Shown here one piece after another: positions 1,579 through 63,254 of a DNA stretch of 64,000 bases. Origin of the DNA: Nitrospiraceae bacterium. Its GTDB lineage: Bacteria > Nitrospirota > Nitrospiria > Nitrospirales > Nitrospiraceae. The notes under the pieces were generated by a model. The model saw nothing but the letters and a program-made list of their open reading frames with translations. It did not search any database and was not told where the DNA came from. Positions within the stretch are counted from its first letter, which is position 1, and the number at the start of each line of letters is the position of its first letter. The stretch is from positions 128,001 through 192,000 of the forward strand of contig JBFWWG010000006.1 in the NCBI GenBank assembly GCA_050246315.1, written 5' to 3'. Both the position numbers and the translations under genes were made by a program.

Positions 1579-2457
1579 GCACGATCAGCTCCCGCGTTGA
1601 CGAGGCGACCACACCTGACTGTCGTTGATCGACGCACCGCTCCAACCCGCACATGTGACTTCCATGTGGCACAGGACCGAAGGAACGAATTCGGTCGTAC
1701 ACACGATCCGGGTCTCACCAAGCCGAACACCTCGCCATAGTGCATGGGAAGCAGACAGGCCTCGAATGTATCACCCGAAGTCAAGTTCCGCCAGTCACGA
1801 ACACCCAGGACGCCCCCTGTACTGATTGAGCCACATCAAGCTCTTCCCCCTCGTTTCACGCACCTCATCCGGCCGGAGTAGCAGCATTTGAGAAAGGCCG
1901 CCCGACTTGTCATGCTCCCCGAGAACGTTGATGCTCCCGTCCCGAAAAACCTCGTGAGGAAGCGCCACCGCCTTCGTATCGAGCTGCCTGGTGCAGCGGA
2001 GCCTGGGTGCATCGGGCGCAGCTCTTCCTTCCTCGGGAGATCCTTGGATAGAGAAAATGATGCGACCATGGAGACTACCTCCGATGAGAATTCCAGATAG
2101 GCCTCGGTGATCGCGGGAGGTGCCACCACGGGTGCGATATGGAGGACGGGGAGCTTGTTGCTATCGTCATGGCATCGAGCGACGCCCGCGCCTGGTTCCA
2201 GTGAGAACATCTGCCTTAATCCGCCGCGGCTCGTCCACCTGAGAGGCCATCCGGTTCCGATTCGACCCGCGAATCAGCGGAGCTGCACCAGATCGTGAGT
2301 CGGAATCGTATACAACGCGAGAAGCGTGACTCGATATGTCCGAAAGGCCGGATCGCCACCAGACGTCACTCTTCCAGCCGGCCGCTCCTCCCATCGCGTT
2401 GCTCCCAGTGAACCAGCGGGATTCAGCCGCGAGTGATCGATGCGTCAAGTCAGCTAG

Positions 2458-56058: not shown

Positions 56059-56769
56059 TCACGCGGAGACGGCGTTCCGTCCTTGGCGAGATCCCGGTAT
56101 TGCGTGGCCTGCCTCGCGCATGGCCTTGATGGTGCCGGCGTAGTCGGTGCTGCAAAAGATGGCCGAGCCGGCCACCAGCACATCCGCGCCGGCCTCGACG
56201 ACGGAGACGGCATTGTCCACCTTCACGCCCCCGTCCACCTCCAGCAAGGCATGGCTTCCGGCTTGATCCAGCATCGCACGAACCTTCCTGATTTTTTCCA
56301 GCACGCCGGGAATAAAATGCTGGCCTCCGAAGCCGGGATTGACCGACATCACGAGGATCAGATCGACATCGGGGAGGATTTCTTCCAGCGTGAACACCGA
56401 CGTGGCGGGATTCAGCGTGACGCCGGCCTTGACCCCGCGCTCTTTAATGAATTGCACGGTGCGATGCAGGTGCGGACAGGCCTCCACATGCACGGTGAGA
56501 TAGTCGGCGCCGGCCTCGGCAAACGCGCCGATGCAGTCGTCCGGATTCGTCACCATTAAATGCACGTCGAGCGGCAGGCGCGTCACCTTGCGGATCGACT
56601 CCACGATCGGCGGTCCCACCGTGAGGTTCGGCACGAAATGACCATCCATGACATCCACGTGCAGCCAATCCGCACCGCCCTGTTCGACCCGGGCGATTTC
56701 GTCGGCCAACCGCGCGAAGTCCGCGGAAAGGATGGAAGGAGCGATCTTCAGGGCCGGGCGAGTCATCAT
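56059..56769 (-). CDS. rpe: Ribulose-phosphate 3-epimerase
   Basis: PSILSADF, HVDVMDGHFVPN, VDGG. Confidence 0.96.
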   Translation of the reverse strand: MMTRPALKIAPSILSADFARLADEIARVEQGGADWLHVDVMDGHFVPNLTVGPPIVESIRKVTRLPLDVHLMVTNPDDCIGAFAEAGADYLTVHVEACPHLHRTVQFIKERGVKAGVTLNPATSVFTLEEILPDVDLILVMSVNPGFGGQHFIPGVLEKIRKVRAMLDQAGSHALLEVDGGVKVDNAVSVVEAGADVLVAGSAIFCSTDYAGTIKAMREAGHAIPGSRQGRNAVSA

Positions 56770-58280
56770 GCGGAGCGGCGCAATCGGGCCGCGAAAAAGC
56801 CGTCCATGTTGAATGCGTTCACGGCTGAGCAGAATTCGCCGCGTGCGCTGACTAACGACTGGGCAACGGGAGGAAGCTCCGGCGCCACCGACTCTCGCAC
56901 AAACTCCGGATGCGCCTCGGAAAAGCGGTCGATCACCTGGGTGGTTTCTTCTGGCTCAGTCGAGCAGGTACTATAGACGATCACGCCGCCGGGTCGCAAG
57001 AGACGGCTGGTCCGATCCAAGAGGTCGAGCTGGGCCGAGTGTGCCTCTATAAGATTGGCAACGGTCTTCTGCCACTTCGCTTCGGGGTGCCGACGCAGCA
57101 CACCGAAGGCGCTGCAGGGCGCATCGAGCAGAATTCGATCGAACGGTTGCTGCAGGTCCGTCGTAAACTCGGCCCGAGGCTGTGTTCGCGTGGCCGGTTG
57201 ACGTGTCTGTTCATGTAATTGATCTGGGTGCGACAGCGTCGCAAGGTCATGGACGAACGACTTCACGTTGGTCGCGCCCAATCGCAGCAGGTTGTCCCTC
57301 AGAAGCCGTAATCGAGACAGGCTGCGATCCAGAGCGATGATCTCTCCTTGGTTTTGCATCAGCGCAGCCAGATGCGTCGCCTTGCCACCCGGTGCCGCGC
57401 AGGCGTCCAGGATTCGCTCTCCCGGCCTCGGGCTAGCCACGAGCGGGATCAACTGGGCCGCCTCATCCTCTACGTAGAATCCTCCTTCACGGAACAGAGG
57501 AAACTCGACGGGGCTCCCGCCTCCCTCAACGACAATTCCATCCGGGCTGACATCCGTCGGCCAGGCCACGATACCGGCCTCTTGGAAGGCAGCAAGCAGG
57601 TCGGCCCGCTGGAACCGAATCGTATTGACGCGGAGCGTCAGCGGAGGTGCTGAGGCCACCTGCCGACACAGGGTTTCGGCCTCTTCAGTGCCAAGACGCG
57701 CGATCCACCGCGCGACCAGCCAGGACGGACAGGAATAGCGGAGGCTCAACGCTTCGATGGGATCGATCTGCGGATCGGATGAAGGATCGGGCAGCGATAC
57801 ATCGGGAGCCCGCAGCAAGGCCCGAAGCACGGCATTGACGAATCCCGTCCAGTGAGGGCGGTTATGGAGGCGAGTGTCGCGAACCAACTCCACCGTCTCA
57901 TGGACAGCCGCGCGAGGCGGTATTTTGGTCAGAAGCAGGATCTGATAGGCGCCGAGCCGCAGAATCCATCGAATCGGAGGAGGCAGCCGCTCAATGGAAC
58001 GATCGGCCACCTGATTGACCCGCCAATCGAGCAGGCTCCGCTGCCGCAACACACCATAAACCAGTTCCAGCACCAGGGCCCGGTCCCGCTGATCCAACGA
58101 CGCGGCGGCGCTCGCGCGATCGAGTTCGTCCTCGGCATGAAGTCGCCGATCCTCCACCGCGCCGAGCACGTCCAGCGCCACTGCCCTGGCGCCCTTGCGC
58201 CGGAGTCTCTCTGTCACGATTCGTTCAGAACGCTTCACGAGCGGCACTTCACGATGCGCCTTGGTGGATGGGTTCATCAT
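56766..58280 (-). CDS. rsmB: 16S rRNA m5C967 methyltransferase
   Basis: NusB-like N-terminus, DACAAPGGK, DAPCS, YSTCS. Confidence 0.93.
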   Translation of the reverse strand: MMNPSTKAHREVPLVKRSERIVTERLRRKGARAVALDVLGAVEDRRLHAEDELDRASAAASLDQRDRALVLELVYGVLRQRSLLDWRVNQVADRSIERLPPPIRWILRLGAYQILLLTKIPPRAAVHETVELVRDTRLHNRPHWTGFVNAVLRALLRAPDVSLPDPSSDPQIDPIEALSLRYSCPSWLVARWIARLGTEEAETLCRQVASAPPLTLRVNTIRFQRADLLAAFQEAGIVAWPTDVSPDGIVVEGGGSPVEFPLFREGGFYVEDEAAQLIPLVASPRPGERILDACAAPGGKATHLAALMQNQGEIIALDRSLSRLRLLRDNLLRLGATNVKSFVHDLATLSHPDQLHEQTRQPATRTQPRAEFTTDLQQPFDRILLDAPCSAFGVLRRHPEAKWQKTVANLIEAHSAQLDLLDRTSRLLRPGGVIVYSTCSTEPEETTQVIDRFSEAHPEFVRESVAPELPPVAQSLVSARGEFCSAVNAFNMDGFFAARLRRSA

Positions 58281-59239
58281 TCTGCTGCCGGAAGAGAACC
58301 CAGCACCAGGCCGGGAGTAATCGCATGACCGGCCAAATACTGAGCGACAGTCATGCGCCGGCCCCCGGCCGGCTGGAGGGCTGTGATGGCAAGCATGCCC
58401 TGTCCCGTGGCCACCAGCAATTGGCCCTTTTCCACCTTGATGATGGTACCGGGCTGGCCGGAAGAGTCGGCCGTCTCTGAGGCATGGGCATCCCAGATAT
58501 TCCATCGCTCCACATGATCATGATGCTGGACAAAGGCGTAGGCGCCGGGCCAGGGGGTCAACCCACGCACGCGATTGGACAGGGCTGAGGCACTGAGGTT
58601 CCAGTCGATCAACCCATGTTCCTTTTTGAGGATCGGAGCCAGCGTGGCCTGACTGTGGTCTTGGACAATTGGATGCAGATGCCCGGCTTTAAGTTGCCGC
58701 AGGGTTTCGATCAGCAGCCTGGCTCCCACTTGCGCAAGCTTGACCCCGACCGAGCCGCCCGTATCGTCCGGCTCGATTGGAATGGCTTCCCGTAACAGCA
58801 TCGCGCCGGTATCCATGCCCTCGTCCATCAACATGGTCGTGATGCCGGTCTCCCGCTCTCCGTTGATGACGGCCCATTGAATTGGAGCAGCACCACGATA
58901 CTTGGGCAACAGAGACCCGTGGACGTTGATGCAGCCCCGAGGCGGCAATGACAAAATAGACGGAGGAAGGATTCGCCCGAATGCCGCCACAGCTATGACG
59001 TCCGGCTGCCAGGCTTGGAGCGCAGAGAGAAAGCCGGGGTCTTTCATTTTGGTCGGTTGCAGGACAGGAATCCCCGACCGCGTGGCCAGTTGTTTGACGG
59101 GCGGGGCCGTTAATTCCTGGCCCCGTCCCTTCGGCCGGTCGGGTTGCGTGACGACGCCGACCACCTGATCCTCCGAGCGCAGCAGCGCCTCCAGGGAAGG
59201 GACCGCAAACTCCGGTGTGCCCATGAAGATGATCCGCAT
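58277..59239 (-). CDS. fmt: Methionyl-tRNA formyltransferase
   Basis: FMGTPEFA, NVHGSLLPKYRGAAP. Confidence 0.97.
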   Translation of the reverse strand: MRIIFMGTPEFAVPSLEALLRSEDQVVGVVTQPDRPKGRGQELTAPPVKQLATRSGIPVLQPTKMKDPGFLSALQAWQPDVIAVAAFGRILPPSILSLPPRGCINVHGSLLPKYRGAAPIQWAVINGERETGITTMLMDEGMDTGAMLLREAIPIEPDDTGGSVGVKLAQVGARLLIETLRQLKAGHLHPIVQDHSQATLAPILKKEHGLIDWNLSASALSNRVRGLTPWPGAYAFVQHHDHVERWNIWDAHASETADSSGQPGTIIKVEKGQLLVATGQGMLAITALQPAGGRRMTVAQYLAGHAITPGLVLGSLPAAE

Positions 59240-59327
59240 GAATGCGTGTTACCATTCTTCACCGATGCGGCGCAACTTTCCTGCGCGACATCTTGTATTC
59301 GGTCAAACCGTTCTGTTAGCATCCGCC

Positions 59328-59707
59328 TGCGGGGTGGAGCAGCTTGGTAGCTCGTTGGGCTCATTCCGCAGGATCTCCATGAGCACGACCCCCATGGGTC
59401 ATGGTTCCGCCGCTTATCGGAACGCATGGCATCTGATCCTGCAAAGGGCTGCGCAGGGGGAAACCTCTGCGAGATCACCTGTCAAAGTCGGGGAAGCCGT
59501 TGGCGGGGTAACCCCGAGCCAAGCTCAAGTGGCCATACCGGTCCTTGAGAAGGTGTAGAGACTTGATGGCAGGCACCCTCCCGGTGGCGCGAGCCAGCCG
59601 AGGGTGAAGGGAAAGTCCAGACCACGAACTGGTCCAACCAGGCAGCGAAAGCTGTAGCGGTACGCATAACCCAAAGGTCGAAGGTTCAAATCCTTCCCCC
59701 GCAACCA
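59328..59707 (+). tRNA. Initiator tRNA-fMet(CAU), split: exons 59328-59361 and 59665-59707
   Basis: Spliced 77-nt cloverleaf; three G-C pairs closing anticodon stem (TTGGG/CCCAA); CCA end. Confidence 0.93.
59362..59664 (+). ncRNA. Group I self-splicing intron (IC3-like), 303 nt, no ORF
   Basis: P3 CCTGTCA/TGGCAGG, P7 GACTT/AAGTC, GAAGGTGTAGAGACT, P9 GAAA tetraloop, terminal G, U.G pair at 5' splice site. Confidence 0.9.
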
Positions 59708-59723
59708 ATTTGATTCCGCAGTG

Positions 59724-59767
59724 AGCAAACGGGCTATCTGGTGACGCCAGATAGCCCGTTTGCTTTT
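59724..59767 (+). terminator. Intrinsic terminator
   Basis: AGCAAACGGGCTATCTGG-TGACG-CCAGATAGCCCGTTTGCT + T run. Confidence 0.85.
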
Positions 59768-60060
59768 GGATTCTCAGTTGGCCGCCCACTTATCGATGCC
59801 TGAGTAGGAGCAATGTGTGATTGCAAGACCTGACCCCGTTTCCCGCGCCGTTTCCCGCGTTTCGTGATGCGTTGGTGTCGATGTGATGCATGAGGTCATG
59901 CTGTCGGCCACCGCCCCTGCAGCCTCGCATCTCACGCGTCATCGCTGCGCCGTCCGTTACTTCCACACTGCAACCAAACGGCTCTCGTAGGCCGCTGTCC
60001 GCCAAAAGCACCTCGGCTGAAAAGTTGAATGTCCCCTTTTTGCTTTCCTGATCTTGTCCG

Positions 60061-61763: not shown

Positions 61764-62225
61764 TCATAACCACCGACGAACCGAACGCTTGTACGCCGTA
61801 AAGGCATCCGGAAACTTGGCGCACAAGGCTCGTTCCTCGGGCACGATTTGAAATCGATTCATGTACAACGCGAAGAGGGGAAGGAATGCGAACGCCAGCA
61901 AATTGGACAGATACATCGCCCACCCGGCAAGTACAAAGAGGAAGCCAAGGTACATCGGATTACGGGTGAAGCGGTAAATACCCGAGGTGACCATCGCCGT
62001 GGTCGCTTCCGGTGTCAGCGGATTGACCGTGGTCTTCGCCCGGCGAAACGCCAAGACGCCGGCCAAGGCGACCAGGAACCCCACGGTGAAACACATAAGG
62101 GCGAACGCCGCGCGCCATGGCAGGAAGAGGGTGAACGCAGAAGAGACGGAGGCGAGCCACATCGCAGCGGCGAATAGCACGACGAGCGCAAGCGGGGGGA
62201 CTTTTAATTCCAGCGCATTGAACAT
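61764..62225 (-). CDS. Isoprenylcysteine carboxyl methyltransferase family protein
   Basis: GIYRFTRNPMYLG, PEER, Y..SVRRWL. Confidence 0.9.
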   Translation of the reverse strand: MFNALELKVPPLALVVLFAAAMWLASVSSAFTLFLPWRAAFALMCFTVGFLVALAGVLAFRRAKTTVNPLTPEATTAMVTSGIYRFTRNPMYLGFLFVLAGWAMYLSNLLAFAFLPLFALYMNRFQIVPEERALCAKFPDAFTAYKRSVRRWL

Positions 62226-62379
62226 AGAAGTCACGCGCGGATTGCGTTTCTATTCCGACCTGAGTCCGGAATGGATGAGGACCCGTATGTCCATCATCTC
62301 GTTGTCGCTGGTTCAGTGGTGGTTGGCGACCCTCCAAAATCGGTTTTCCGGCAGCCCGCTGGATCAGGTTCACTCTCCG

Positions 62380-62814
62380 TCAAGAACGGAGTCTGAACCT
62401 CCCGCTCTGTCTGGAACGGGTAAGGGCCATCACCCACAGCCCCAACACGACATCAATGCTCCCACAAAAGGTCGGCCACCAGATCGGGACGCCGGCGTTC
62501 TCGATGAGCATGTCATGCACAAGATCAAAGAGACCGTGTGCCACAATCCCAGCTCCCACGAGCAGGGGAAAGAAGAGAGCTCCCATTATCGCGACGGTTG
62601 CAAACCCGACGGCGTATACCAGTTCCCAGACCAAGGCGTGACTGGAACCGCCCAGAACCGCGAAGAGCACATAATAGGACGCGATGATGACGAGAACGGT
62701 GGAATAGAAGCTGCGTTTTTCATCGAAGCGTGTGAACTTGGCCAGTGCAGCGATCGCAATACCAAGGAGAACGCCAACAACAAGGGGCATCAGGTATCGC
62801 CTGTCGATGTCCAA
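62380..62814 (-). CDS. Membrane protein
   Basis: ~5 TMs; HGLFDLVH, WWPTFC motifs. Confidence 0.72.
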   Translation of the reverse strand: MDIDRRYLMPLVVGVLLGIAIAALAKFTRFDEKRSFYSTVLVIIASYYVLFAVLGGSSHALVWELVYAVGFATVAIMGALFFPLLVGAGIVAHGLFDLVHDMLIENAGVPIWWPTFCGSIDVVLGLWVMALTRSRQSGRFRLRS

Positions 62815-63075: not shown

Positions 63076-63254
63076 CTACGCATCGTGAGGCGCGAGACCG
63101 CTGGGGGAGTACCTCGGCCGCCCCGCGCCGCGAAATTCAGAATGTGCTCCTCTCCGCATGAGAACCCAACGATCGAAGTTCACATCCTTCCCCCGCAACC
63201 AACCACTTCAAGCACTTAAGAACCCTCCTCATCGCTAAAGCTCGGTATTCCGTC

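Follow-up and report, generated by a model that had tools for sequence, protein, structure and literature searches.

The IC3 group I introns of Azoarcus tRNA-Ile and Anabaena tRNA-Leu are small, lie in the anticodon loop, and combine a GAAA-capped P2 with a compact P4-P6. One of the four classical IC3 types in bacterial tRNAs, fMet.2Ug, is defined by the initiator tRNA as host, anticodon-loop position 2, a U at -1 and a G at omega; its IC3 assignment is given by Williams (2020, bioRxiv 10.1101/2020.01.27.920355), citing the group I intron database, and in the same work the tFind survey of 80,413 bacterial genomes yielded 5292 split tRNA genes. The intron of this kind in Synechocystis sp. PCC 6803 is 655 nt long and carries the 150-aa homing endonuclease I-Ssp6803I, which is the sole PD-(D/E)XK case listed in the relevant part of Haugen et al (2007, PMC1995217). 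Here, we analysed a 64,000-nt stretch of a Nitrospiraceae draft genome (the window) that contains a split gene whose setting is identical to the fMet.2Ug definition. In our reading, in which we have high confidence, this Nitrospiraceae-like bacterium has one initiator tRNA gene, into which a classical fMet.2Ug intron is inserted between U33 and C34, and this intron has lost its homing-endonuclease gene. The host is new or little-described for the tRNA-fMet intron family; a literature search of titles and abstract starts found no paper on tRNA introns in Nitrospira. The find does not alter the known working of such introns.

The initiator-type tRNA(CAU) gene occupies positions 59328-59707 of the window, on the plus strand, and is split after U33 by a 303-nt intron. 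The 5' exon (59328-59361) comprises the 5' strand of the acceptor stem, the D arm, the 5' strand of the anticodon stem, C32 and U33; it ends in GGGCT and contributes to the A11:U24 pair, to G29-G31 and to the U1-A72 pair. The intron (59362-59664), a group I intron without an intact homing-endonuclease gene, ends in G, and the 3' exon (59665-59707; CATAACCC...ACCA) supplies the anticodon CAU, A37, A38, the 3' strand of the anticodon stem, the T arm, the 3' strand of the acceptor stem and an encoded ACCA. As read from the gene sequence alone, the expected exon joint is GGGCU/CAUAACCC (59361/59665). When the exons are joined by coordinate, ARAGORN reports a 77-nt tRNA-Met(cat); run on the unspliced window, the same program calls no tRNA at 59328-59707.

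The intron matches the Rfam group I model RF00028 at 59429-59637 (cmscan in E-value mode over 59200-59850), covering model positions 1-253, i.e. the whole model, with 40.4 bits and an E-value of 7.8e-9. The Infernal check proposed with the original prediction is therefore positive in E-value mode, but its score lies below the RF00028 gathering score of 50 bits, and a scan of the whole window in gathering mode lists only two ordinary tRNAs and not RF00028. Note that two family members, from Scytonema hofmanni UTEX 2349 (L119, 46.4 bits) and from the family of the window (L005, 39.0 bits), are likewise below this score, so the gathering threshold misses accepted members of the family. An intron-core HMM matches the window intron with an E-value of 2e-53, which excludes a chance match. 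Judged on these matches and on the covariation described below, the window intron is genuine, well preserved and a member of a known group I family; we assign it to fMet.2Ug (IC3), the IC3 label being taken from the literature. The central claim of the original prediction holds: in a non-cyanobacterial host, an initiator-type tRNA(CAU) gene carries a group I intron after U33. The gene also escapes both ARAGORN and Rfam at the gathering score, and such genes had been expected to be missed by annotators; the result is of use mainly for annotation, as the genome appears in consequence to be without an initiator tRNA.

To describe the fold, we compared the window intron with its homologues. Both exons lie inside the fetched DNA for 89 of the 132 loci collected in all, and removal of three taken to be att-like (L030 and, wrongly, L035 and L052, see below) leaves 86 introns, 71 of which, among the matches listed, are 350 nt or shorter, so that most family members are without an endonuclease ORF and belonging to the family does not call for one. 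From these 71, near-copies were greedily removed and the 50 non-redundant ORF-less introns that remained were aligned with MAFFT (alignment A1). Over P1-P9 and the P7 pseudoknot, 97.0% of the 2798 cells are paired, and 31 of the 56 pairs are changed on both sides. None of 500 shuffles reaches any of the five measures used, and controls in which the register was slid pair 33-44% of cells; A1 was not fitted to the structure, whereas the P1 and P7 pairs were picked on the window sequence, which somewhat favours the unslid register in this comparison. RNAalifold on A1 recovers P2, P3, P4, P5, P6, P8, P9 and a GAAA-capped hairpin, with compensatory changes in 31 of 53 pairs, and closes the anticodon stem of the tRNA over the intron, one pair of this stem being C-G in 34 sequences and U-A in 16.

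The 5' splice site is marked by pairing with an internal guide, (A)GGGCU at 59445-59450, whose GGGCU (59446-59450) lies directly 5' of P2 and pairs with G30-G31-C32-U33 and the first intron base, C1, to form P1. U33 (59361) faces G59447, giving the wobble pair at the splice site, and this U.G is found in 50/50 aligned introns. The guide GGGC is invariant (50/50), the G-C, C-G and U.G pairs of P1 are present in all 50 sequences, and the remaining C-G pair is present in 49, with one U-G. The tRNA dictates the exon side of P1, which therefore cannot covary and is supported by conserved sequence and position. The minimum free energy fold of 59354-59474 forms P1, a P1 extension and P2 (z -3.24). 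In the extension hairpin (59368-59442), GCAGGATC at 59368-59375 pairs with GATCCTGC at 59435-59442, and its loop is the site of the ORF in two relatives (L003 and L005). In the window, an A stands just 5' of the guide, and the pair with intron A2 that is present in 42 of 50 relatives is thus absent, so P10 is weak in this copy. The guide had earlier been placed elsewhere, as ATGGGTC at 59394-59400 with a P10 to match. This placement fails: the motif sits inside a 17-nt stretch (59387-59403) that is present only in L002 and L063 and is missing from the other homologues, i.e. in unconserved filler, while the conserved guide is GGGCU at 59446-59450. An RNAalifold pairing of the guide GGGC with GUCC of the 3' strand of P7 was also discarded: it stems from a folding method restricted to nested pairs, and the two strands are invariant and explained by P1 and P7.

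Downstream of the guide, the helices follow the group I plan, all on the plus strand. P2 is a hairpin with a GAAA tetraloop (59452-59471 in the minimum free energy fold), in which 8/8 pairs show compensatory changes; its base carries a G.A mismatch in the window. The core helices P3-P8 are paired in 97-100% of cells (n = 50), and each of them has compensatory changes, those of P6 lying in its inner part. The 5' strand of P3 (59478-59483) pairs with 59568-59573 through six pairs, paired in 100% of cells and compensatory in three; P4 (59488-93/59512-17) closes around a short P5 (59497-98/59507-08), the whole spanning 59488-59517; and P6 (59518-59554) consists of 59518-20/59552-54 and 59524-27/59546-49, the inner pairs being compensatory in 4/4 cases. 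The 5' strand of P7 (59558-59564), made of G59558, a bulged A59559 and GACUU at 59560-64, pairs with the 3' strand at 59613-59618 in 100% of cells by pair counts on A1. Its last, outermost pair occurs as U-A, G-C, A-U and C-G, with one G-U, and is changed on both sides in 30 of 50 sequences. P7 forms a pseudoknot with P3 and is presumably the guanosine-binding helix. P8 (59574-59606; 59574-79/59601-06) has compensatory changes in 4/6 pairs, and P9 (CTGG 59629-32 with CCAG 59638-41), followed by the GAAA-capped hairpin (59642-46/59651-55), covers 59629-59655 with 9/9 pairs compensatory. The intron ends at omega-G (59664), and a G precedes CATAACCC in 50/50 aligned introns. The alignment-based structure agrees with the P3 (59478-84/59567-73), P4/P6 core strings and P7 (59560-64/59613-17) read from the window beforehand, as well as with the GCAGC-GAAA-GCTGT hairpin, which is the second of the P9 region, and the omega-G.

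Two relatives of the window intron are more than twice as long. In the genus of the window, L003 has an intron of 656 nt, and in its family, L005 has one of 658 nt; the ORF-bearing introns examined range from 635 to 695 nt. The L005 ORF (P0001, 177 aa) aligns almost end to end with PDB 2ost_A (E 2.1e-62); in Pfam, it matches PDDEXK_5 (E 8.7e-49). We take PDB 2OST to be I-Ssp6803I. The structure of I-Ssp6803I is attributed to Zhao et al (2007) in the passage of PMC3384342 that concerns it, in agreement with this identity. In L003, the ORF (1772-2227, minus strand) is split by a frameshift. The L003 intron matches positions 1-25 and 43-303 of the window intron, with 96% identity in the shared parts, and has 370 nt where the window has the 17-nt filler at 59387-59403 (plus strand), which is the presumed junction of the deletion.

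A 59-codon open frame at 59379-59558 (plus strand), in which the start and the first three codons of the endonuclease are joined to its C-terminal part, appears to be the relic of this gene, and it overlaps the ribozyme core. Its residues 10-49 are 75% identical to P0001 residues 128-167, and a Pfam search of the frame gave no match. In the ORF-bearing members examined, the last ~45 endonuclease codons overlap the ribozyme core, so C-terminal similarity alone is no proof of a relic; for the same reason, tblastn matches of the endonuclease C-terminus (~133 to ~167) in ORF-less introns were rejected as relics, that region being the conserved core. We infer the deletion from the start codon region, from the comparison of the window (L001) with L003, and from intermediates with differing remnants in Nitrospirota (L015, 514 nt; L023, 344 nt; L070, 329 nt; L004 and L083, 321 nt; L059, 321 nt), and the direction of change would then be a deletion in the window lineage. 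In L015, residues 1-59 and 113-177 remain on either side of an internal deletion, and L023, L070, L004 and L059 keep only C-terminal remnants of differing lengths, so that the Nitrospirota display a visible series of endonuclease decay states. The absence of an endonuclease ORF that had been noted from the window is thus correct for an intact gene, with the 59-codon relic remaining.

The distribution of the intron was followed by scanning species-representative genomes for the 3' junction motif (a G, then CATAACCC and the remainder of the 3' exon), which gave at least 120 loci. The intron-core HMM matches 113 of the 120 junction-pattern loci listed (E < 1e-5); the seven core-negative loci include L057 and L125, which have no upstream DNA, and L030, a false positive as a split gene that consists of an intact tRNA and a partial repeat. 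Two Acidobacteriota introns (L035 and L052) begin with CATAACC, the same as the first seven bases of the 3' exon, and are genuine group I introns, scoring 52.5 and 57.3 bits against RF00028. Among the matches listed, with groups taken from record names, core-bearing loci number at least 38 in Cyanobacteria, at least 21 in Nitrospirota, at least 16 in Acidobacteriota, at least 9 in Omnitrophota, at least 6 in Rhodothermales and at least 23 in about a dozen further groups, so at least 75 are not cyanobacterial; most of the latter come from metagenome bins, and some may be mis-binned. The 244-nt intron of L080, labelled 'uncultured Acetobacteraceae', has the same first bases as several Nostoc loci, and this bin label may be wrong. 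The junction pattern has no match in viral contigs.

Closer to the window, 12 loci with the intron were found among 41 related genomes, and most of the others are intron-less, as judged by exon-only matches at overlapping, adjacent coordinates (e.g. G001, of the window's genus); G009, an unpublished genome, was counted only among the genomes without the intron. The core is present in 47 of 151 genomes sampled from the order of the window, distributed very unevenly: 3/62 in its own family (f1, own genome excluded), 40/62 in a second family (f2), 3/21 in a third (f3) and 0/5 in a fourth (f4), while genus g23, within f2, reaches 32/34, many of these genomes being single-contig. G110 has a second, partial core copy ~300 nt from the full one (G110:C1:3236354-3236981), and in G106, a 16-Mb 'genome', two contigs each carry a full copy, so this bin may be mixed. 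The window intron and its flanks are 98.7% identical to L063, on a contig of Nitrospiraceae bacterium isolate NOB01, which makes the host a non-cyanobacterium, as originally predicted, and L002/L063, in another genome, carry the same split gene with 99% identity over 380 nt.

In a maximum-likelihood tree of 50 introns, rooted at the midpoint and with bootstrap values not fully settled, support of 99/97 joins the 25 cyanobacterial rows into one group, to which neither the window nor the other Nitrospirota belong, and a second group (100/99) takes in the Omnitrophota and Planctomycetota rows. The window lies, like the other Nitrospirota rows, in an unresolved comb with rows from Actinomycetota and Elusimicrobiota. 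Because the cyanobacterial rows group apart, the window copy is no recent cyanobacterial import; the phylogeny proposed as a check on the original prediction therefore places the window outside the cyanobacterial group. The patchy occurrence is compatible with lateral spread and loss. Introns after U33 of tRNA-fMet had been presented as classically cyanobacterial and laterally spread: the classical fMet.2Ug type and the patchiness stand, but the rarity outside Cyanobacteria that this implied does not, given the at least 75 non-cyanobacterial loci. Overall, the 'cyanobacterial' fMet intron with an I-Ssp6803I-type endonuclease in fact spans many phyla.

The ARAGORN drawing of the joined tRNA has the CAU anticodon, the three G-C pairs 29-31:39-41 and A11:U24, and G2, C3, G70, C71 and A72 are as in the initiator consensus. 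The A11-T24 pair is conserved in 100% of tRNA-fMet genes except one divergent tRNA of Bordetella bronchiseptica, according to the section of Silva et al (2006, PMC1635315) on this feature. The 1:72 mismatch, usually C1 x A72, is absent here and is replaced by U1-A72, a weak Watson-Crick pair (59328 and 59703), which is found in 25 of the 86 split genes among the matches listed, including L001-L012, L015 and L021. The same section of PMC1635315 gives A1-U72 or U1-A72 in 1.5% of bacterial initiators, 'probably not affecting' formylation. Initiator tRNAs of the window's order have U1-A72, and those of Cyanobacteria mostly have C1 x C72. Taking these features together, we keep the gene as 'initiator-type' despite U1-A72.

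The genome is a 30-contig draft with an estimated completeness of 100%, in which ARAGORN finds 46 tRNAs. Besides the split gene, only two carry CAT; in both, 1:72 is paired and Y11:R24 is present, and by these elongator or Ile2-like features they would be elongator Met and Ile2. The 5' exon has no second copy in a blastn-short search over the genome, and the count of intron-less initiator genes among the 30 contigs, by ARAGORN and blastn, is zero. Because no other initiator gene was found, mature initiator tRNA, and with it translation initiation, should depend on splicing, a second gene in an unassembled part of the draft being the possible exception. This supports the suggestion made from the window that initiation may depend on a ribozyme, in which case an essential single-copy gene in a nitrite-oxidiser-type lineage would rely on it.

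Such an unassembled second gene would allow the split gene to be an inactivated pseudogene and its intron a dead relic. The 30-contig state of the assembly is in keeping with this, as are the A.A at the P1/P10 edge, the G.A at the base of P2 and the sub-threshold Rfam score, yet we hold it to be extremely unlikely. The window copy has every column that is invariant in the 50-sequence alignment, its core-HMM match is as strong as given above, and the near-identical L002/L063 retain the gene in another genome; moreover, the completeness estimate and the single 5' exon speak against a missing gene, and the single-contig g23 genomes with the intron indicate that split initiator genes are viable in this order.

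We therefore favour a working intron, for which catalysis and autonomous splicing in vivo are inferred. In the precursor, G30-U33 and the first intron base would pair with the guide GGGCU to form P1 with the U33.G59447 wobble; free guanosine held in P7 would attack after U33, following the standard group I pathway; G59664 would then occupy the same site, and the 5' exon would be ligated to C34. The expected products are a 77-nt tRNA with CAU and a released 303-nt intron. By word match only, at least half of the sampled words of 59250-59800 occur in 20 runs from 12 studies, 17 of them on record as RNA and sludge and wastewater runs among them. As to its history, the intron would have entered the lineage as a mobile element, its movement powered by a PD-(D/E)XK endonuclease of the I-Ssp6803I type whose gene lay in the P1 loop; a later deletion of that gene in the window lineage would have left the 17-nt filler and the 59-codon relic frame.

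Splicing might instead proceed in vivo only with a host protein or under some conditions, making the intron a valve on the supply of initiator tRNA rather than a neutral passenger. That it lies in the sole initiator gene found, is nearly fixed in the related genus g23 and has a weak P10 in the window copy would fit such a role; nothing in the data points to a cofactor or to regulation, however, and the patchiness in the window's family, together with the decaying endonuclease genes, fits the invasion and decay cycle of a selfish element, so that we regard the valve as highly unlikely. The position in a sole initiator gene and the near-fixation in g23 also raise the idea that, in Nitrospirales, the intron is no longer only selfish and was recruited as a checkpoint linking the maturation of initiator tRNA to intracellular levels of guanosine nucleotides and Mg2+. 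We give this idea a very low probability; if true, the checkpoint would link the capacity for translation initiation to cell state in slow-growing bacteria.

A 17-bp perfect hairpin followed by TTTT, read from the sequence at 59725-59763 (plus strand), 18 nt past the tRNA 3' end, is likely a transcription terminator; a consensus terminator scan does not list it, and a promoter scan of 59150-59850 gives no sigma-70-like site. Upstream, 89 bp from the tRNA and divergent from it, lies a methionyl-tRNA formyltransferase-like (fmt-like) gene (58277-59239, minus strand; Formyl_trans_N E 5e-46, Formyl_trans_C E 3e-26), followed by an rsmB-like gene (56766-58505, minus strand). The true rsmB start is probably internal to the listed ORF, since the fmt-like and rsmB-like ORFs as listed share 229 nt. 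About 40 nt from the 3' end of the tRNA recur in degenerate form (90% over 40 nt) at 63163-63201, 3.45 kb downstream of the gene; within this stretch, at 63178-63201, lies the partial 24-nt copy that is the only further match of the 3' exon in the genome by blastn-short. The degenerate copy resembles the distal boundary of an island that had inserted at the 3' end of the tRNA; the genes between it and the tRNA gene include two on the minus strand, for a PEMT/ICMT-like methyltransferase (61764-62234) and for a DUF6010 membrane protein (62380-62814), and no integrase was seen in this interval. A similar partial tRNA repeat is present ~480 nt downstream in L003.

Compared with known systems, the window intron lies in the same host gene as that of Synechocystis sp. 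PCC 6803 and, going by how fMet.2Ug is defined, at the same U33/C34 site, and a close homologue of I-Ssp6803I occupies the same place in the introns of the window's relatives (L005, as above). It differs from the Synechocystis intron in its length of 303 nt, in its 17-nt filler and relic frame and in its Nitrospiraceae-like host, and the likeness between the two rests on the relatives and on the class definition. A direct match is given by blastn to the ORF-less, ~244-nt type of a classical host, Scytonema hofmanni UTEX 2349 (L119), with 74% identity over 181 nt of the core (E 3.5e-29), and blastn also matches the cyanobacterial loci L020 and L036. L119-type introns of filamentous cyanobacteria share with the window the P1-P9 plan, the guide GGGC adjoining P2 and the omega-G context, and the window intron is 59 nt longer than this ~244-nt type, mainly in the P1 extension, P6 and P8. 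The Azoarcus tRNA-Ile and Anabaena tRNA-Leu introns, likened to it here by description only, lie in another tRNA and at another position of the loop.
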